A stretch of 37,745 bases of DNA from a virus (Duplodnaviria > Heunggongvirae > Uroviricota > Caudoviricetes), in IMG/VR virus record IMGVR_UViG_2541047874_000005; one strand, given 5' to 3'. The position numbers were made by a program, and so were the translations under genes. The notes under the pieces are model-generated. The model was not told the DNA's origin. It did no database searches and was given only the letters and a program-made list of their open reading frames with translations. Position 1 is the stretch's first letter. Each line of letters begins with the position of its first letter. Below are positions 23,921 through 32,211 of the stretch, in pieces.

Positions 23921-24177
23921 TCAAATACTACCCTGTTGATGATTTCTCAGAAGCGAACTTGACTCCCAAGGGAAACTCAACTTTCCGTTAAAACCACCAG
24001 CAGACATTCGTTCAATTTCCACAGAAATATCACTGAGCCGTTCTTCAAGCTCTGCTTTTTCTTTTACCAGACGGTTATAGCGGCTTAGATGAAGCTTTTG
24101 CTGCTCCAGCCAGTCTTCAAGCTGTTCAACAGTCATACCAGGGTTAAAAAAATATGGCTGCTGCTTTTCGCCCTGCA
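23921..24177 (-). CDS. Hypothetical protein, first ORF after tR'
   Basis: About 85 aa from the ATG at 24177 just after the terminator hairpin; the longer ORF in the track (to 24247) would span the terminator. Confidence 0.4.
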
Positions 24178-24189
24178 TTATTGACCTCC

Positions 24190-24220
24190 AGAAAAGCAAA
24201 AACCCCGCCGAAGCGAGGTT
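24190..24220 (-). terminator. tR'-like intrinsic terminator of the late leader transcript
   Basis: Minus strand CCTCGC-TTCG-GCGGGG hairpin (one G.U pair) followed by TTTTTGCTTTT; about 60-70 nt downstream of the putative PR'. Confidence 0.5.
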
Positions 24221-24328
24221 TGTTATGATTTCGTTAACGGCAGACATACAAAGCCCATCGTTAAGAGAATCCTAACCAAATTTTTTGAAAAATGCAAGAA
24301 TTACGTCGCCATCTTCGGCGAAAATCAT
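24221..24328 (-). promoter_or_regulatory. Putative late promoter PR' with Q-utilisation region
   Basis: Minus strand TTGCAT (24297..24292), 17 nt spacer, TAGGAT (24274..24269), immediately after the Q stop. Confidence 0.4.
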
Positions 24329-25081
24329 TTATCTTGTCACTTTTCTCAATTGTGTCTCTGCATATGCTTCTTCCTGCCAGCACTTTGTAACCAGTTTATC
24401 AATGACATCTGCATATCCTTTGTACCACTGATAATCCGTCAGATCCGGTACCAGCTTCTGGACATGATGCCGCGCCAGTGTGGTTGGTAAACGGCTAAAC
24501 CGGTTTCCATTGCAACGCCCACAAATCTTATAAACAGGCGCACCATGAAGCCGGGTTCTTTTTTCATCCAGTACAATACCTTTCCCCTTACACCCTCTGC
24601 ACGCTGTGCTGACCTCTCCCTTACCATGACAATGCTGACATAGTTCCTTCACCCACTCTTCCTTGATAACAGATTCCCCGCTTCTGGAGTGTTTCACCAC
24701 TTCGCGCAATACATTATGAAATCCAGTACCAGCACAATGCTCACAGCGAGCCTTACTTGCCGCAGACCTGGAATAATCAGCAAAGGCAAAATTCACAAGG
24801 TAAGGGATGATCTGTAACCGGGTTTCTTCACTCAATTTGTTCAATGTCGGGTTATCCAGTGCCATCGCGTAATTGAGCAGACCTTCAATCGCAAACTGAG
24901 GATCCTGAACACCAACTTTTGCCAGGAATAAGGCAAACCCAAGCGGTGCTTTCGACTGCACCATCCCCTGCGCAGCCATTACATCCGTAATTGTTAAACC
25001 ACCAGAGCCTGTCGCCGGTGCGTCATCGCTCAGTTTTGGAGATTTCGGGGAGTAATATTTCGGTAAGGCTTCAAGGTTCAT
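24329..25081 (-). CDS. Q: Late-gene antitermination protein Q
   Basis: About 250 aa from the ATG at 25081; multiple CxxC/HCH zinc-finger-like motifs; directly upstream of the late promoter/terminator and lysis genes. Confidence 0.75.
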   Translation of the reverse strand: MNLEALPKYYSPKSPKLSDDAPATGSGGLTITDVMAAQGMVQSKAPLGFALFLAKVGVQDPQFAIEGLLNYAMALDNPTLNKLSEETRLQIIPYLVNFAFADYSRSAASKARCEHCAGTGFHNVLREVVKHSRSGESVIKEEWVKELCQHCHGKGEVSTACRGCKGKGIVLDEKRTRLHGAPVYKICGRCNGNRFSRLPTTLARHHVQKLVPDLTDYQWYKGYADVIDKLVTKCWQEEAYAETQLRKVTR

Positions 25082-25094
25082 GCTCGTTCTCCAC

Positions 25095-26090
25095 TTACGC
25101 CAGCACGCCAATTGCCAGCGCACGATCGATAAAACGAAATATCAGCTCCAGCTGGGAGCCATACTTCTCTTCAAATGCCACGGTATCCGCATGCAGCTCG
25201 TCGTGATGCTTTCTGCACAAAGGCAACACAAAGAGGTCATGCGCTTTTGTACCCATTCCCCCCTGACCGTGGCCTATCAGGTGGTGGGGATCATCAGCTG
25301 GCTTTCCACAACATGCACACGGCTGTGTCTTAACCCAGCGCGTGTACTTTTCATTAACCCAGCGGCGACGTTTTGGGCGTAACATAAAAGACTCCGGCGA
25401 CTCCGGATCCACTTTCAGCGCCAGCACCTTTTTCGCTTTATCCTGGATAATGCTGGTGGCAGGAACCGAAGGAACAAGGTCACTCTCCCGGGTGACAGAC
25501 GGCACAACAGGCTTCGGTAATCTCAGTGCCTTACGGGCTGCACTTTCCGGTAAGGCATCCGCCAGGTCATTACGAACCAGCCACCAGCACAGTTCCGGCA
25601 TTGTCACAACGTGACTGTCATCAAAACCGAGATCACGGCGCACAACAGATAACACCCAGCGGGCACAGTTATCCGTTGCCATTGATTCCAGCCGTTCCGT
25701 GAACTGATCGCGCAACTGGTTATCGCAGTGCCAGCACAGACGGATTGCGCCCGGAGCGTGCCGCATTGTGGTCATGTTCTCGCTGTGCCAGTCGGAATGA
25801 GGCCACTGGCAGCCTTTTTCACGAAGTAACCAGCTTTCAAGACATTCCACGCCACCAGCACGACGGATCACTGCCTCATTGCGGAACACGGCCCGAACGG
25901 CAGGATCATCCGCCAGCGGTTGTGATGCCGCCGGAACGGCACCACTGGCGAAAGATGAATAACGTTCCGGCTCAGGCTCCAGCAGGACACGCCCCTGCAT
26001 AAACAGGGGCATCAGCTCTGAACCTGGCCTGAACAATACGATCCCCATACGCGGGGCAATTTCAGGGGTCAGTAGTGCTCTCACGGTCAC
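25095..26090 (-). CDS. DUF968-like prophage protein with C-terminal Cys/His cluster
   Basis: 331 aa; C-terminus CACCGK...HHLIGHGQGG...CRKHHDELH suggests a zinc-binding/HNH-like fold; recalled similarity to ydfU-type genes preceding Q. Confidence 0.55.
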   Translation of the reverse strand: MTVRALLTPEIAPRMGIVLFRPGSELMPLFMQGRVLLEPEPERYSSFASGAVPAASQPLADDPAVRAVFRNEAVIRRAGGVECLESWLLREKGCQWPHSDWHSENMTTMRHAPGAIRLCWHCDNQLRDQFTERLESMATDNCARWVLSVVRRDLGFDDSHVVTMPELCWWLVRNDLADALPESAARKALRLPKPVVPSVTRESDLVPSVPATSIIQDKAKKVLALKVDPESPESFMLRPKRRRWVNEKYTRWVKTQPCACCGKPADDPHHLIGHGQGGMGTKAHDLFVLPLCRKHHDELHADTVAFEEKYGSQLELIFRFIDRALAIGVLA

Positions 26091-26091
26091 C

Positions 26092-26901
26092 TCAATGAAC
26101 GGTATCGAGCAGCTTTAACAGCTCAGGGAATCGGGATTCGAAGAAATGCGGCTGCGTCTCGCGCGGATTTGCGGGACTGGTGATGTTCTTGCCGAACATG
26201 CAGCCTTTCGCTGTCAGCAACCAGAATTTTTTGATGTTGTTAATCGCAGTGCGGCTGTATCGTTCACGTTGTTCAACGATCCCCAGCTTCGCCATCTGGT
26301 GATATGCCTGATTAGCTGTCAGGCGGATACCATACTGCTTCAGCAGTGCACTCAGTGACAGCGTGGGGCGGCTTGAGCCATCAGGCGCGTCAGCAGGAGC
26401 ATCAATGGCATAGCGCGGTGCCAGATTCGGTAAGCCAACAGCCTCCTGAAGCTTCTGACAGGCTCCAAGCACTGATGAGTTAGACAGATTTAATTCCCGG
26501 CGCATAAAGTCCAGCAGGATCACGCCAGCCTGCATCTTGTCAGCAGCCTGTCCGGATAATTTTTCCGGTGCGCTGGTTACCATGTCGAAAGTACGGATCA
26601 CCTTCAGATGGAATGACGGGCTGATCCACATTGCATAGGCATACACCAGTTCTTTGCAGACATACGTCCCCTGGTTATTTCCGCCATTAATGACGCTAAC
26701 TGGTTGATTTTGTTCCAGAGGCGGAATTCCACCCTCGGTGAAAAGTTGTTCAATCAATTCACAGGTTTGCTTATTGGAGAGCCAGTATTTCGGGCGGTTT
26801 TTTTGTTCTCCCCCGGCAGCCCTGTGCAGATCGTTCAGGCTGTAACGCCCATAAGCATCACGACGAACTTCAATACCATCAATGACCATCAGATTATTCA
26901 T
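26092..26901 (-). CDS. KilA-N domain protein (antirepressor-like)
   Basis: About 269 aa from the ATG at 26901 (AGGAG RBS); N-terminal domain MVIDGIEVRRDAYGRYSLNDLHRAAGG...YVCKELVYAYAMWISPSFHLKVIRTF is KilA-N-like. Confidence 0.75.
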   Translation of the reverse strand: MNNLMVIDGIEVRRDAYGRYSLNDLHRAAGGEQKNRPKYWLSNKQTCELIEQLFTEGGIPPLEQNQPVSVINGGNNQGTYVCKELVYAYAMWISPSFHLKVIRTFDMVTSAPEKLSGQAADKMQAGVILLDFMRRELNLSNSSVLGACQKLQEAVGLPNLAPRYAIDAPADAPDGSSRPTLSLSALLKQYGIRLTANQAYHQMAKLGIVEQRERYSRTAINNIKKFWLLTAKGCMFGKNITSPANPRETQPHFFESRFPELLKLLDTVH

Positions 26902-26920
26902 ACTTCGTTTCTCCTCTTGA

Positions 26921-27310
26921 TCAGGCGGCTGCACCCGCCGTTTTCTCGTACTTACTGATGGTGATCTCGACCTTCCCTTTCGGGATAACCGGTCCCCACT
27001 CCACCAGCATTCTTTTCACCTGTCTGTCGTCTTCCCACACACCCGCGTGGGTCAACGCGTCAAACAGCGCCTTGTTATAGTTGTCCAGATCGCGGATCCG
27101 GTTATCCGGAGGAAACAACACGATCTCCACTGCAGCAGGTGCCGACGTTGGTTTTGGCAGACGACGTAACTGCTCAACTATTGCTGCGCACGCCGCGCTC
27201 TGAAATTTTCGCCCCGCCGCGCTTATCAGGCTCTTACCAGCAAATGCCCCTTTGTTGGGGTGTCGCCAGTACGTGTTCACGCTGGGCGGGAAAGGCAGGA
27301 TCAGCTTCAT
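26921..27310 (-). CDS. rusA: RusA-family Holliday junction resolvase
   Basis: 129 aa; LPFPPSVNTYWRH ... DLDNYNKALFDALTHAGVWEDDRQV match the RusA fold and acidic residues. Confidence 0.85.
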   Translation of the reverse strand: MKLILPFPPSVNTYWRHPNKGAFAGKSLISAAGRKFQSAACAAIVEQLRRLPKPTSAPAAVEIVLFPPDNRIRDLDNYNKALFDALTHAGVWEDDRQVKRMLVEWGPVIPKGKVEITISKYEKTAGAAA

Positions 27311-27633
27311 ACTTTCAGGCCTCTCTCATGTAACCAGTGGGTTGCACGCAGCCTGGCGTTTTCCTCACCGGCAAGCAGTGAGCGGATAATCCCGACCGCC
27401 TCGCTGTCGTCGTCCTTCACCGCGGTATGAAGAGTGATACCCCGGGCCACGCCACGCTTTATCGTGATGACGCCTTTTTTCTCCAGTGCGCGAAGATGTT
27501 CCACCGCTGCATTCACTGAACGGTATCCCAGCATGGTTGCCACCTCCTGATTGGTTGGCGGGAAGCCACGTTCTTTCTGGTAAGAAATCAGCATATCCAG
27601 CACCTGCTGCTGGCATTGAGTTAACGTCGTCAT
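27307..27633 (-). CDS. LexA N-terminal DNA-binding-domain-only protein (no S24 peptidase domain)
   Basis: 108 aa; residues 1-70 align with the LexA winged-helix DBD (QQQVLDMLISYQKERGFPPTNQEVATMLGYRSVNAAVEHLRALEKKGVITI); only about 38 further residues, no Ala-Gly site or Ser/Lys dyad. Confidence 0.75.
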   Translation of the reverse strand: MTTLTQCQQQVLDMLISYQKERGFPPTNQEVATMLGYRSVNAAVEHLRALEKKGVITIKRGVARGITLHTAVKDDDSEAVGIIRSLLAGEENARLRATHWLHERGLKV

Positions 27634-28316
27634 GCCGCCATCTCCCTGACCAGTTTTTCCGCCTGCTGGCGAACCTGCGCCAGAAACGCCTCACCACATG
27701 CCTCAAGTTCATCACGCCCGATGTAGCTGATTGCCGGTCCCTTCCAGGTCTTGTCGAAAACAGCAATAGCACCAGCGAAGAAAGCGCCTGTCGGCACCTG
27801 CTTCTCGTCCTTCGGTATAAACCAGGCAGGCAGTTCAAAACCAATACGCCCGCGAATAAAAGCAATATGATCTGCATCTTCCGGCCACCACACTTCGCTG
27901 GTGGCCGCTTTGATCAGGAAAACATAGCGCCCGCCCTTATCACGCATGACACTGGCATGTTTCATGATGTAACGCATGCCGGTGATGTATTGCCCCTCAT
28001 GCTGACTGGCGCGGCTGTATGGGGGATTACCAAAGGCAGCACCTTTAAGCTCCGCAAGACGTTCTGACCAGTCATGCGCCAGCGCGTTATCTTCCGCCGT
28101 GTAATACGCGGCACATTTGGCGTTATCACCGTCAGTAAACAGATCCAGAACAAACGGGCCAAACAGGGTGTTAATTCCCCAGAAAATGTTGTCCGGCGTG
28201 CGCCACTGATCGCCCACTTCCTTCAGTTCATGGGCTGGTTTGTTCCGCAGTTCCACCAGCGCCTGGCAATATTTATTACTCATTAAGCCCCCACGTAATT
28301 CCCTGACAGATACCAC
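27630..28316 (-). CDS. Phage-type DNA N6-adenine methyltransferase (orphan)
   Basis: 228 aa; motif IV FGNPPYS; no adjacent restriction endonuclease; likely start at internal M (MSNKYCQ) given overlap with the upstream gene. Confidence 0.8.
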   Translation of the reverse strand: MVSVRELRGGLMSNKYCQALVELRNKPAHELKEVGDQWRTPDNIFWGINTLFGPFVLDLFTDGDNAKCAAYYTAEDNALAHDWSERLAELKGAAFGNPPYSRASQHEGQYITGMRYIMKHASVMRDKGGRYVFLIKAATSEVWWPEDADHIAFIRGRIGFELPAWFIPKDEKQVPTGAFFAGAIAVFDKTWKGPAISYIGRDELEACGEAFLAQVRQQAEKLVREMAA

Positions 28317-28777
28317 TCTTCACCCGATGCAGCGCGCTTGCTGCTTTTCCGTAAGCACCGCTCACGACGCGCCAGAAAATTGTTTCGTTCTGGCTGGGAG
28401 TGGCTTTCACGGAATGCCGCCATCCACACGGTTGCAGCACGACGGTATAAGCCCCTGGACTCCAGTTCTTCAGCCTGGCGGGTCAGGCACAAAATCACCC
28501 GTGGATCGTTAGTGCCGACATAGAAATTGCGCACAGGTCTGGTTTCTCGAACTGGTTGTGGTTCCGGTTCCTGCGCTCTCTCAGTCAGGCGCGGGAAATG
28601 TCTGCGTGTATCTCCTTCACAACGGTGAGCCACACGCCCACTCTGACGTAACTTGCTTGCTGACTGCAGAACGCGCTGCCGTGAGTAACCTGCAAAAGCA
28701 TCCGCAATGTCTCCGGAAGTACACCCCGGATGGGCTTCAATGAATTTCTGAACTTCATTCAAAAGACTCATGATCAC
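28283..28777 (-). CDS. Protein with C-terminal PerC-like domain (putative transcriptional activator)
   Basis: 164 aa; C-terminal EELESRGLYRRAATVWMAAF...RRERCLRK matches my recollection of the PerC-family GLWRRAA.RW...RRE.CL motif. Confidence 0.45.
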   Translation of the reverse strand: MIMSLLNEVQKFIEAHPGCTSGDIADAFAGYSRQRVLQSASKLRQSGRVAHRCEGDTRRHFPRLTERAQEPEPQPVRETRPVRNFYVGTNDPRVILCLTRQAEELESRGLYRRAATVWMAAFRESHSQPERNNFLARRERCLRKSSKRAASGEEWYLSGNYVGA

Positions 28778-29592
28778 CCCCTGAATCCTTCCGGGATCTG
28801 GCTGTAGTCCACGTTGTCGTAACTGGCTTTGAAGTACGGGTCCTCGCGTCTGGCTGCAGATACCGCAGGAACTTCCCAGGATTCTTCGAAATGACGATCC
28901 GGACCAAAGAACGTGACAGCCTGTTTCACAAATTGTGTGCCGCTGTTACCCATCGCAGATACCCAGCCCGCGTAGCGTTTCACACCTTCCAGCATGGTTT
29001 CGGGGTTTACCCCCTCATTCAAACGGGCTTTCCAGGCTTTGAAGGCTGCAGATTTTGAATTGCCACCAGCACGTTTGGGATATACCAGCCATGCCTGCTC
29101 AAACTCCGGAGAGTATTCCGGTCGGTTTGAACGAACTCGCACGGACTCATCAACTGATGCACCAACAGCTATTGGTTCATTGACTGGTTCTTTGACTGGT
29201 TCAAAAGAGTGACTGGTTCTGGGTGAATCTCCTGCACTACCACCTGGTGCAACTCCTGCACTACCTGGTGAATTTGCTGCACCAGATAGTGAATTATTTG
29301 CACTACCCCCTAGTGAATCTCCTGCACCATCCAGATGAAGGAGATAGATATTACTTGAGTTACCTTTTTCACCTTTCCGGGTGACTTTTTTTACCAGCCC
29401 GGACTCACAAAGGGCCGCAATATGATTCATCACAGAACGTTTGCTAATCTCGCACTGGTCAGCAATATGCTGGTAGCTGGGCCAGCACTCACCCTGATCG
29501 CTGGCATTATCAGCCAGCTTGATCAGAACCAGTTTTCGCAATGGATTACCCACTCGAATTTTCATCGCTTTAACCATCAGCTCCATACTCAT
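28774..29592 (-). CDS. Putative replication initiation protein (N-terminal wHTH, low-complexity linker, C-terminal domain)
   Basis: 272 aa; N-terminal winged-helix-like VLIKLADNASDQGECWPSYQHIADQCEISKRSVMNHIAALCESGLV; Gly/Ser/Ala/Asn repeat linker encoded by tandem DNA repeats; lambda-O-like architecture. Confidence 0.55.
   Translation of the reverse strand: MSMELMVKAMKIRVGNPLRKLVLIKLADNASDQGECWPSYQHIADQCEISKRSVMNHIAALCESGLVKKVTRKGEKGNSSNIYLLHLDGAGDSLGGSANNSLSGAANSPGSAGVAPGGSAGDSPRTSHSFEPVKEPVNEPIAVGASVDESVRVRSNRPEYSPEFEQAWLVYPKRAGGNSKSAAFKAWKARLNEGVNPETMLEGVKRYAGWVSAMGNSGTQFVKQAVTFFGPDRHFEESWEVPAVSAARREDPYFKASYDNVDYSQIPEGFRG
29180..29340. repeat. Iteron-like tandem repeats inside the replication gene (candidate origin)
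   Basis: Three copies of GACTGGTTC (29182..29219) and about five degenerate 21-24 bp units of the form GTGAATCTCCTGCACTACC (29220..29335). Confidence 0.45.
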
Positions 29593-29825
29593 GCTGCACC
29601 TCCGAGATGCTTCATGTTTTTTCCGGAGCGAAAGGCTATAAGCGGCATACTGACGCGGTAATTACGGCCCAGCGGTTCACAAACCACCTTCTGACATTCA
29701 CGGTCAACCAGGCTAACACGTAGAACATGCCCTGCAGGCGTGGTGTACCACTGCCCAACTGTAGGAATTGATGTTTTTTTACGCTGAAGTAAACGGCGAA
29801 TATTGAGGCTCAACAGATTAAGCAT
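29589..29825 (-). CDS. Small hypothetical protein
   Basis: 78 aa ORF with start/stop overlaps to both neighbours; basic. Confidence 0.4.
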   Translation of the reverse strand: MLNLLSLNIRRLLQRKKTSIPTVGQWYTTPAGHVLRVSLVDRECQKVVCEPLGRNYRVSMPLIAFRSGKNMKHLGGAA

Positions 29826-30654
29826 GACGATGCCCTCCGCTGATATTCAGGAGACGGTGAATATGAAAATTAGCCTTATCCGCCAGACGAATACGTTCAG
29901 CCTGCAAGTTAAGAAGGGTTTCTACCAAAACCTGATGCGCCTGCGGATCCGAAAGAGTTACCTTGCGCAGAGCACGTAGTGCAGTTGTTACATAACTGAG
30001 TTTATGTAAGTCTTCATCATTCAGACGAGTGAGGGCTGGGACAGTAGCCATGATGGCAGCCTCCTTGATCGGTGAAATACTTCCACCACCGGAAACGCCA
30101 ATTTCGCTGGTGGTGAACTGAACGGGGTTGGCGTAACCGGTGATCAAGGAAACCGGCGCATCTTTCGATGCCCCCGCCCAGCCCACCATAACTTTGATGT
30201 GAGCAAATGCGGACGATAAAAAAGACGCTGGCGCGTCATATATCGCCTTGATCAATTCCAGGACGCCAATCCCGGCACCCGCTTTATAAGGTGCCTGAAC
30301 AGTGTAACGTCCCGGAATGGCAGAATCAATGTGCTGGTGGTCCTTCACACTCAACAAAATCACGCCTGAATTTCCACAAAGGACTAAAGCACTCATGCGG
30401 GTAGTCTTTGCGAAGATAGATAACGCGCTGTGTTTCTGGCTCCCAACGAATAACATGAACATAAAGTCCTCTTCCGTCACGAAACCAGCGGTTAAGTTCC
30501 TGCACAACTCGCCCCCCACAGTCAGGTAAAGTTCTCTGTGGTTACTTACAGCCAGGTGATTTGGTAATCTGCATTCATGCCGTAACAACAGGTGTTCAGC
30601 GACACTGACCACCAGCTGTTGCGACAAACGGTTATTTGCCGTTAAACTGTTCAT
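29818..30654 (-). CDS. Hypothetical early protein
   Basis: 278 aa; between CII-like and replication genes; no Walker motif; no family recognised. Confidence 0.5.
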   Translation of the reverse strand: MNSLTANNRLSQQLVVSVAEHLLLRHECRLPNHLAVSNHRELYLTVGGELCRNLTAGFVTEEDFMFMLFVGSQKHSALSIFAKTTRMSALVLCGNSGVILLSVKDHQHIDSAIPGRYTVQAPYKAGAGIGVLELIKAIYDAPASFLSSAFAHIKVMVGWAGASKDAPVSLITGYANPVQFTTSEIGVSGGGSISPIKEAAIMATVPALTRLNDEDLHKLSYVTTALRALRKVTLSDPQAHQVLVETLLNLQAERIRLADKANFHIHRLLNISGGHRHA

Positions 30655-31214
30655 GCGTTAGTTTCTCCACAGACACAAAACGCCACGACGCCCGGAGCTG
30701 CACACTCGCGGGCGTCACTCTTTTCTGGAGCGCAAAAGATTTTGTAGACCAGTGCTGCATGCTCCTGGAGCTTCGAAATTGACAGATACAACTCATCATT
30801 AATTGCTGTCTGCTCGTGTGGCTCCACTACCCCATCTTCGATTGCCGAACGAATCTGCTTTGAGTAACTCCCGATCTGTTCGATGACTTCCAGCAGGCGC
30901 TGGTTTATATCGGCGTTCTCTACTTCCTCAATTTCAGGAAGCGATACAAACACCCCACCAGCAGACTGTGCGACAGCATCCGCAATGTAGTGAGTGCCAG
31001 CCGCGCGCTGTAAAATCATTGCCCATCCCAGCGGGAAAATCTGATCGCCATCTGCACGAAGGCGGTTGAATAAAGCGTTCTCTGTTACATCCAGCCACTC
31101 AGCAGCTTCAGCGTAACCCCCCGGCAACGCCGCGATAGTTTTTCTGACAGCTTTCACGTACCACTCAGGCTGTTTTTCTACTTTCCAGTGATGCTTACCC
31201 ACGGTTAGCCTCAT
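30651..31214 (-). CDS. Putative CII-like regulatory protein (tentative)
   Basis: 187 aa, first gene after cro-like; family assignment by position and size only. Confidence 0.4.
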   Translation of the reverse strand: MRLTVGKHHWKVEKQPEWYVKAVRKTIAALPGGYAEAAEWLDVTENALFNRLRADGDQIFPLGWAMILQRAAGTHYIADAVAQSAGGVFVSLPEIEEVENADINQRLLEVIEQIGSYSKQIRSAIEDGVVEPHEQTAINDELYLSISKLQEHAALVYKIFCAPEKSDARECAAPGVVAFCVCGETNA

Positions 31215-31536: not shown

Positions 31537-32211
31537 ATGAAAACAGTCCATGACATCCGGCGGTCTAACGCCAGAAAACTGAGAGATGGTGTTGGCGGGA
31601 ATTCTTCCTTTGCCACCATGATTGATCGCGAGCCAACCCAGACCAGCAGGTTTATGGGAGATGGTGCTACTAAAAATATCGGTGACAGCATGGCACGGCA
31701 CATCGAAAAATGTTTCGACCTGCCTGTCGGATGGCTTGATCAAGAACACCAGACAACAAACATCACAAAAAAACCTGATGTTTCAATTACTAACAAACAA
31801 ATAACGTTAGTCCCTGTCATATCATGGGTACAGGCCGGAGCATGGAAAGAAGTTGGCTATTCTGAGGTTGATTTGAGCACAGCAGAAACTTATCCCTGCC
31901 CTGTACCCTGTGGCGAAATGACTTATATCTTGCGGGTGATTGGTGATTCAATGATTGATGAGTACCGCCCGGGAGACATGATTTTTGTTGATCCCGAAGT
32001 CCCTGCCTGCCACGGTGACGACGTTATTGCATTGATGCACGATACAGGCGAAACCACCTTCAAGCGATTGATAGAAGATGGAACACAGCGTTATCTCAAA
32101 GCATTAAACCCAAACTGGCCTGAGCCTTACATTAAGATTAACGGTAATTGCTCTATAATTGGTACAGTAATTTTCTCAGGAAAACCAAGAAGATACAAAA
32201 TAAAGGCCTAA
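31537..32211 (+). CDS. cI: CI-type prophage repressor with S24 (LexA-like) autopeptidase domain
   Basis: 224 aa; C-terminal VIGDSM...GD...K and a QAG cleavage-site-like motif; N-terminal HTH-like region; divergent from cro. Confidence 0.85.
   Translation: MKTVHDIRRSNARKLRDGVGGNSSFATMIDREPTQTSRFMGDGATKNIGDSMARHIEKCFDLPVGWLDQEHQTTNITKKPDVSITNKQITLVPVISWVQAGAWKEVGYSEVDLSTAETYPCPVPCGEMTYILRVIGDSMIDEYRPGDMIFVDPEVPACHGDDVIALMHDTGETTFKRLIEDGTQRYLKALNPNWPEPYIKINGNCSIIGTVIFSGKPRRYKIKA

Follow-up and report, generated by a model that had tools for sequence, protein, structure and literature searches.

The closest described relatives of the locus considered here are the orf40-dam genes of phage SfV and their equivalents in the CPS-53 element of Escherichia coli K-12, yfdN-yfdM, of which YfdN has been termed "the K12 unique PerC homologue" (PMC5931665). 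In the PerC family, Pch activates LEE1 only under repression by H-NS/StpA/Hha/YdgT and lowers the occupancy of H-NS (PMC4764244), and the paralog PchE is described in the literature as acting on csgD and flagella, not on ler. The Dam enzymes encoded by phages VT-2 and HP1 have been cited as Dam-like, that is, as acting at GATC (PMC7556043), and M.EcoVT2Dam has been reported to target GATC (PMC6602927). Furthermore, Shiga toxin (Stx) 2a phages encode an MT-A70 enzyme with a DPPW motif, M.EcoPA8orf6770P, which associates 1:1 with PNB-2, a winged-helix protein encoded immediately upstream of it; the enzyme requires PNB-2 for methylation of 16S rRNA, the preferred substrate of the complex (PMC10810198). 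Here, we compare these systems with two adjacent genes at positions 27630-28777 in a 37,745-nucleotide stretch of DNA from a virus of the Caudoviricetes (IMG/VR record IMGVR_UViG_2541047874_000005), hereafter the window.

The window represents the prophage of a temperate, SfV-like myovirus from a host genome of the Escherichia/Shigella type. Judged by sequence similarity, the two genes are the yfdN/yfdM pair of SfV-like prophages, encoding a predicted phage DNA adenine methylase and a predicted PerC-family regulator. The best explanation of the locus as a whole, to which we assign a probability of about 0.72, is that it represents an accessory pair of the early operon, in which one protein would methylate phage DNA and the other would serve as a two-domain regulator. 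The module is already known: near-identical loci in RefSeq carry the names "phage N-6-adenine-methyltransferase" and "yfdN: PerC family transcriptional regulator," and the same names recur in hundreds of E. coli genomes. Our finding is thus correct but ordinary, in that it re-identifies a module that is correctly named in RefSeq and of which roughly one in two of the complete E. coli genomes searched carries at least a part. The first-pass annotation had proposed an orphan Dam-type methyltransferase next to an overlapping gene with a PerC-like C-terminus, and the coordinates it gave coincide exactly with two minus-strand open reading frames. The NPPY motif on which it relied can be read directly in the sequence and two methyltransferase profiles match above their curated cutoffs, while the resemblance to PerC was recovered in a profile search above the gathering score. 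The putative roles that it suggested, anti-restriction or epigenetic control for the methyltransferase and a link to host regulation for the regulator, are plausible.

The methyltransferase and the PerC-family regulator

The downstream gene (27630-28283, minus strand), which corresponds to dam of SfV and to an intact yfdM of K-12, encodes a predicted phage-type DNA N6-adenine methyltransferase of 217 amino acids from the ATG at 28283, the start chosen by NCBI; an alternative in-frame GTG at 28316 gives an open reading frame of 228 amino acids (27630-28316). Its sole Pfam match is to PF05869 (Dam), at 154.7 bits (E = 2.3e-45, cutoff 28.1) over profile positions 3-167 of 169, and the NCBIfam equivalog TIGR01712 is matched over all of its positions (1-165 of 165) at 254.5 bits (E = 3.2e-76, cutoff 97.05). 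The PADLOC profile for type II methyltransferases, MTase_II PDLC03263, for which no cutoff is given, aligns end to end at 521.8 bits. The catalytic NPPY tetrapeptide, motif IV of the amino-methyltransferases, lies at residues 86-89 (28017-28028, minus strand) in the context FGNPPYSRA, and all four residues (N86, P87, P88 and Y89) are invariant in the alignment with the Dams of HP1, T1 and 933W as well as across 12 homologs. Upstream of it, the alignment places the segment VLDLFTD (residues 45-51; 28131-28151, minus strand), in which L46 and D47 are invariant in comparison with the same three enzymes, and which from the order of the motifs is a candidate for the motif I-like segment that binds S-adenosylmethionine.

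The protein is 99% identical to the Dam protein of SfV and, likewise, 99% identical to K-12 YfdM, a fragment of 91 residues that ends just after NPPY. Its identity to phage enzymes that are annotated or cited as Dam-type methyltransferases is far lower, at 25% to orf13 of HP1, 24% to gp20 of T1 and 30% to the Dam of 933W/VT-2, yet the DxW-TP, LD and NPPYS blocks are invariant among them. Relative to these enzymes, its C-terminal helix is longer, and it has insertions after NPPY and shortly before the C-terminus. Among homologs from several genera with 76-88% identity, 120 of the 217 positions are invariant.

No specificity determination for the SfV/yfdM subfamily was found in the literature. 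Three other enzymes that were considered as leads to its specificity were set aside since they belong to other families, M.EcoMIV of sequence type 131 being a PF02086 enzyme, and M.EcoGV and M.EcoPA8orf6770P being MT-A70/DPPW enzymes. The methyltransferase is mislabeled as "phosphoadenosine phosphosulfate reductase" in the RefSeq records of several phages, including SfV (SfVp41; L002, 6431-7084), mEp460 and phage Chi. The same name is borne by PHROG 33262, a profile of 495 positions of which the Dam domain matches only positions 283-492, and the label looks like an annotation artifact that has spread from fusion proteins. We also observed that four homologs in Cronobacter, Enterobacter and Atlantibacter (P0172, P0181, P0200 and P0230; 285-327 amino acids, 79-83% identity in the best local alignment) have a C-terminal extension of about 70-110 residues with no Pfam match.

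The upstream gene (28283-28777, minus strand) encodes the yfdN-type PerC-family regulator, with 164 amino acids from the GTG at 28777 or 162 from the ATG at 28771. The protein is 98% identical to both K-12 YfdN and SfV orf40, and matches PHROG 1324, named "transcriptional activator," at 264 bits. The Pfam profile PerC (PF06069) aligns with residues 100-151 at 36.1 bits (E = 7.8e-09, gathering score 22.6), a match that is also obtained with only the C-terminal 100 residues as the query, and residues 96-147 are 40% identical to PchE of strain Sakai over 52 amino acids (E = 5e-10). The profile for ANR (AraC negative regulator; NF033650) reached only 23.6 bits over residues 98-144, below its cutoff of 32.

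An AlphaFold2 model of the regulator (mean predicted local distance difference test, pLDDT, 76) consists of three parts. The N-terminal part, residues 5-62 (28592-28765, minus strand), is modeled as a winged helix-turn-helix domain with the order H-H-H-beta-beta and pLDDT of about 79-88; this is followed by a linker rich in proline and glutamate that is disordered in the model (residues 65-81) and by a three-helix, PerC-like domain (residues 92-151; 28325-28504, minus strand) with pLDDT of about 90-93 up to residue 140 and lower values thereafter. Foldseek aligned the N-terminal unit with the winged helices of ArsR/SmtB, MarR, MepR and MecI over 57-69 columns at 1.8-3.4 Å, at weak E-values of 2e-3 or worse, and the first 64 amino acids scored 21.3 against MarR_2, below the threshold of 27. 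Sequence and profile searches found no relatives of the protein in the PDB. The model thus portrays the yfdN-like protein as a two-domain protein with a winged helix and a PerC-like C-terminal third, not as a plain PerC. The possibility that PchE is the same type of protein as YfdN was rejected, since PchE is a single-domain protein of 90 amino acids, with which the PerC profile aligns from end to end at 152.8 bits.

Another allele of the yfdN-like gene occurs in some E. coli prophages and differs from that of the window mainly in the winged-helix domain and the linker. In one such prophage (L091, 3501-3980), there is little difference from the window in the PerC-like domain, in the O-like gene (97% identical) or in the methyltransferase (99.5%), a pattern that on sequence comparison suggests cassette exchange of the DNA-binding domain.

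Operon position, gene junctions and distribution

The two genes are embedded in a series of minus-strand genes that begins with a cro-like gene (about 31.2-31.7 kb), next to a divergently oriented S24-peptidase repressor of the CI type (31537-32211, plus strand), and continues with a CII-like gene (30651-31214), Ash (29818-30654), an open reading frame of 78 amino acids (29589-29825) and an O-like replication gene with HTH_36/DnaD_N domains (28774-29592; PF13730, 44.1 bits), the counterparts of which are labeled replication protein O in SfV, mEp460 and Stx2 phages. Downstream of the pair are a LexA-N-like gene (27307-27633), the Holliday-junction resolvase gene rusA (26921-27310), KilA-N (26092-26934), DUF968/HNH (25095-26090) and Q (24329-25123), and the genes for tail, head and lysis lie at roughly 0.4-23.8 kb of the window. 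The order from cro to Q is identical in SfV, vB_EcoM-720R4, E. coli E1620 and Salmonella prophages. A consensus scan of the gene strand from 27.3 to 31.3 kb found no sigma-70-like promoter, and one weak terminator-like site was seen at 30224-30237. It is therefore most likely that the pair is transcribed with the replication and recombination genes as part of the early rightward transcript, which the repressor controls, and since both genes are in this operon, their action is expected in lytic growth and not in the lysogenic state.

The genes are also tightly joined, with stop and start codons overlapping at all three junctions (3/3) from the O-like to the LexA-N-like gene. The TGA of the O-like gene overlaps the GTG of the yfdN-like gene at 28774-28777, and the TGA of the methyltransferase gene overlaps the ATG of the next gene at 27630-27633 (ATGA). 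At the junction within the pair, GGGGGCTTAATG (28281-28292, minus strand), the TAA of the yfdN-like gene shares one base with the ATG of dam (TAATG), and a run of five G residues lies 4 nucleotides upstream. The overlap between the two genes, as claimed in the first-pass annotation, is indeed present and amounts to 1 nucleotide from the ATG start of NCBI or to 34 nucleotides from the GTG start. Among related loci, the pattern was found in 74, and in every one of them the junction GGGGGCTTAATG is identical.

Single proteins of 379-380 amino acids in which the PerC-like and Dam parts are fused form about 17 database clusters, most of them singletons with 1-3 member sequences (P0122, P0132 and P0129). 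In the sequenced fusions, the joint reads ...NYVGGLMSNKY..., as expected if the G5 run before TAATG is longer by one G, and the fusion P0129 has an earlier frameshift into an upstream extension of the Dam frame. An extra G in the run was seen in 0 of the 74 related loci, and the fusions are probably homopolymer errors or sporadic mutations. Programmed frameshifting at G5-TAATG was rejected, since the fusions are encoded in the DNA by the extra G, fall mostly in singleton clusters and are absent from the 74 loci.

The claim that no endonuclease is located nearby also stands: none of the 19 flanking proteins at 23.9-37.2 kb matches a restriction-enzyme family (0/19), the segment at 1-23.8 kb being judged only by the annotation of a related phage. 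There is no restriction enzyme beside the methyltransferase, the only nucleases among the scanned proteins being RusA and DUF968/HNH, and a PADLOC scan of nine proteins identified no restriction-enzyme family. The cognate endonuclease gene of a type II restriction-modification system is thus missing beside the methyltransferase gene. Likewise, the related phages SfV and vB_EcoM-720R4 have no adjoining restriction enzyme according to their annotations. The term orphan, as applied to the methyltransferase, refers to this lack of an adjoining restriction enzyme.

A query of 2.5 kb covering the pair (27200-29700) matched 70 phage records by megablast, including SfV, mEp460 and many Stx2-converting phages. 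Of the 5426 complete E. coli genomes, 2732 gave a match to some part of the query, and 737 a match with at least 80% coverage. Among 80 viral contigs with a yfdN-like gene of 98-99% identity, the methyltransferase was detected at a coverage of at least 80% in 68, and when only the 72 contigs with at least 1.5 kb downstream of the yfdN-like gene are considered, in 66. Two Salmonella prophages have kept both genes, one (L087) with 71% identity for the PerC-like protein and 88% for the methyltransferase, and the other (L094) with 69 and 70%, and in the E. coli variant L091 the corresponding values are 73 and 99.5%. In a Citrobacter prophage, the PerC-like gene is directly followed by the LexA-like gene and the methyltransferase is absent, and in Klebsiella phage Kp4884-1 (methyltransferase 64% identical) and phage Chi (46%), there is no PerC-like gene within 2.5 kb. 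The pairing is thus common but separable, which is the expected pattern for neighboring cassettes of a mosaic phage operon that are not obligate partners.

The LexA-N-like protein encoded downstream of dam (108 amino acids; PF01726, 69 bits) is 43% identical to residues 1-86 of E. coli LexA and has no S24 self-cleavage domain. As a non-cleavable mimic of LexA produced from the early lytic operon, it could in principle keep SOS boxes repressed during induction. Three perfect matches to the LexA-box consensus (CTGT-N8-ACAG) are located in the window, at 3-18, 31-46 and 30536-30551, of which the first two are arranged in tandem, 28 bp apart, at its extreme left end. Shuffling gave an expectation of 0.53 per window, and 2 of 100 shuffles reached three. 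The gene that these boxes might control lies outside the window or at its edge.

Possible functions of the pair

Our preferred explanation is that the two genes are adjacent accessory genes of the early rightward (replication or "nin"-type) operon of an SfV-like temperate phage. Transcription from the repressor-controlled early promoter would produce the methyltransferase together with the replication proteins, and the enzyme would then most likely methylate the phage DNA as it rapidly replicates, with GATC as the probable target, as for the characterized members of its family, so that progeny genomes would be fully methylated before packaging. Such methylation could shield the progeny DNA from restriction enzymes that are blocked by it, and methylation-dependent steps of the phage cycle could continue to work when the Dam enzyme of the host is outrun. 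The winged helix of the yfdN-like protein is predicted to bind DNA, with the disordered linker joining it to the PerC-like three-helix domain, and by analogy with Pch/PerC, the protein would most likely relieve silencing of the H-NS type or otherwise activate genes of the phage or the host.

Several observations weigh against this explanation. The GATC target is suggested by family membership, and because the cited GATC-specific members HP1, T1 and 933W are only 24-30% identical and there are insertions after NPPY, this specificity is not established for the subfamily. The window contains 149 GATC sites, where base composition predicts 146 and a Markov model 191, so that the motif is neither clearly enriched nor clearly avoided. 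The host has a Dam enzyme of its own, and that the phage gains from a second GATC enzyme is our assumption. Among PDB structures, no relative of the methyltransferase was found either by sequence or by profile, and its AlphaFold2 model, built from a 12-sequence alignment with 76-88% identity, is unusable with a mean pLDDT of 38.9. For the regulator, the PerC match spans only profile positions 5-56 of 90 (52 positions), and Pch paralogs outside group 1 barely activate ler, with less than 2-fold activation by PchE and none by PchD (PMC5931665). Our literature search found no data on a regulatory target or activity of YfdN. Finally, the record of SfV marks weak putative -35 and -10 elements for dam within orf40, which would permit expression in the lysogen.

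The same promoter annotation speaks for a different view, in which the two genes would be an epigenetic and regulatory "moron" pair that is expressed in the lysogen from an internal promoter and reprograms the expression of host genes such as adhesion, motility or virulence loci. Such a role would agree with the control of host loci by other prophage PerC-family proteins, such as that of ler by PchA-C and that of csgD and flagella by PchE, and with the report that the yfdM remnant of K-12 affects the propagation of a T1-like phage (bioRxiv 10.1101/413146). However, the hexamers found in the window at the position of the SfV dam promoter, TGGCGC and TACGGA, each match only 3 of 6 consensus positions, and our scan predicted no promoter there. 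The genes moreover sit within the early lytic operon, to which their translation is coupled, and YfdN itself has no reported phenotype in restriction or in host regulation; we therefore regard expression as a moron pair as unlikely. If the genes are instead remnants of a decaying prophage that have lost their function, they would resemble the K-12 CPS-53 element, in which the methyltransferase stops shortly after NPPY, at 91 amino acids, and truncation has likewise affected the O-like gene. This seems the least probable of the explanations, given that neither open reading frame in the window is shortened and that both have 98-99% identity to their counterparts in SfV and vB_EcoM-720R4, which were deposited as complete phage genomes, and that the 120 invariant positions of the methyltransferase extend across genera.

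We also considered that the two proteins could be subunits of one enzyme, with the winged-helix/PerC-like protein targeting the methyltransferase to specific DNA or RNA, as PNB-2 does for the MT-A70 enzyme of the Stx phages. By this analogy, the "orphan Dam" would be a guided, site-selective epigenetic writer during prophage induction, which we likewise think very improbable. The precedent (PMC10810198) is attractive in that the winged-helix gene is located immediately upstream and is coupled via TAATG, as in the Stx phages, and the methyltransferase accompanies the yfdN-like gene in 68 of the 80 related viral loci. The enzyme families differ, though, NPPY (PF05869) versus DPPW (MT-A70). Retention of both genes in Salmonella, at 71/88% and 69/70% identity, fits an interaction, but the pair has come apart in the Citrobacter prophage, Kp4884-1 and phage Chi, and the 73% identity of the PerC-like protein in L091 against 99.5% for the methyltransferase gives no sign of co-variation. 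Natural fusions in a single open reading frame exist, but as mostly singleton clusters (1-3 sequences) that are absent from 74 of 74 loci, they fit homopolymer error or mutation. An enzyme of two subunits is thus very unlikely, and an accessory pair of the early operon remains the explanation that we favor.

Comparison with described phage and plasmid systems

The window is most similar to SfV orf40-dam, which is equivalent to yfdN-yfdM of CPS-53 in K-12, with 98-99% protein identity and identical junctions. The gene order is shared with SfV, from the O-like gene through yfdN, dam, the LexA-like gene, rusA, kilA-N and DUF968 to Q. In K-12, yfdM has been truncated to 91 amino acids, whereas the methyltransferase gene in the window is intact. 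Unlike the window, SfV and vB_EcoM-720R4 have a second, unrelated methyltransferase of 350 amino acids between Q and holin. The slot of this second enzyme (L002, 1484-2536 in SfV; L098, 21108-22160 in vB_EcoM-720R4) is occupied in the window by an open reading frame of 108 amino acids that belongs to PHROG 3501 (23921-24247, minus strand).

The Dam enzymes of HP1, T1 and 933W (M.EcoVT2Dam) have in common with the methyltransferase of the window the Pfam and TIGRFAM family, the small size and an invariant DxW-TP...LD...NPPYS core, and none of them has a partner restriction enzyme. The differences are the identity of only 24-30%, the extra insertions and the longer C-terminal helix in the window protein. 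In comparison with PerC of enteropathogenic E. coli and Pch of enterohemorrhagic E. coli, such as the Sakai PchE of 90 amino acids, the C-terminal domain of the yfdN-like protein is alike, with 40% identity to PchE over 52 amino acids. All of these proteins are encoded on horizontally acquired elements, Pch and the window protein on prophages and PerC on a plasmid. However, PerC and Pch are single-domain proteins of about 90-105 amino acids with no recognizable DNA-binding motif (PMC4764244), whereas the yfdN-like protein of 164 amino acids has an additional predicted N-terminal winged helix and linker and is thus not a single-domain protein, and no LEE1 or ler activity has been reported for it.

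The resemblance to M.EcoPA8orf6770P and PNB-2 lies in the arrangement, a prophage gene for a "DNA adenine methylase" that is preceded by a winged-helix gene with which it is co-expressed. The methyltransferase of the window is not an MT-A70/DPPW enzyme, its sole Pfam match being PF05869 and its motif NPPY. Furthermore, M.EcoPA8orf6770P and PNB-2 form a complex with an rRNA substrate, whereas pairs of the type in the window are separable in other phages and prophages.

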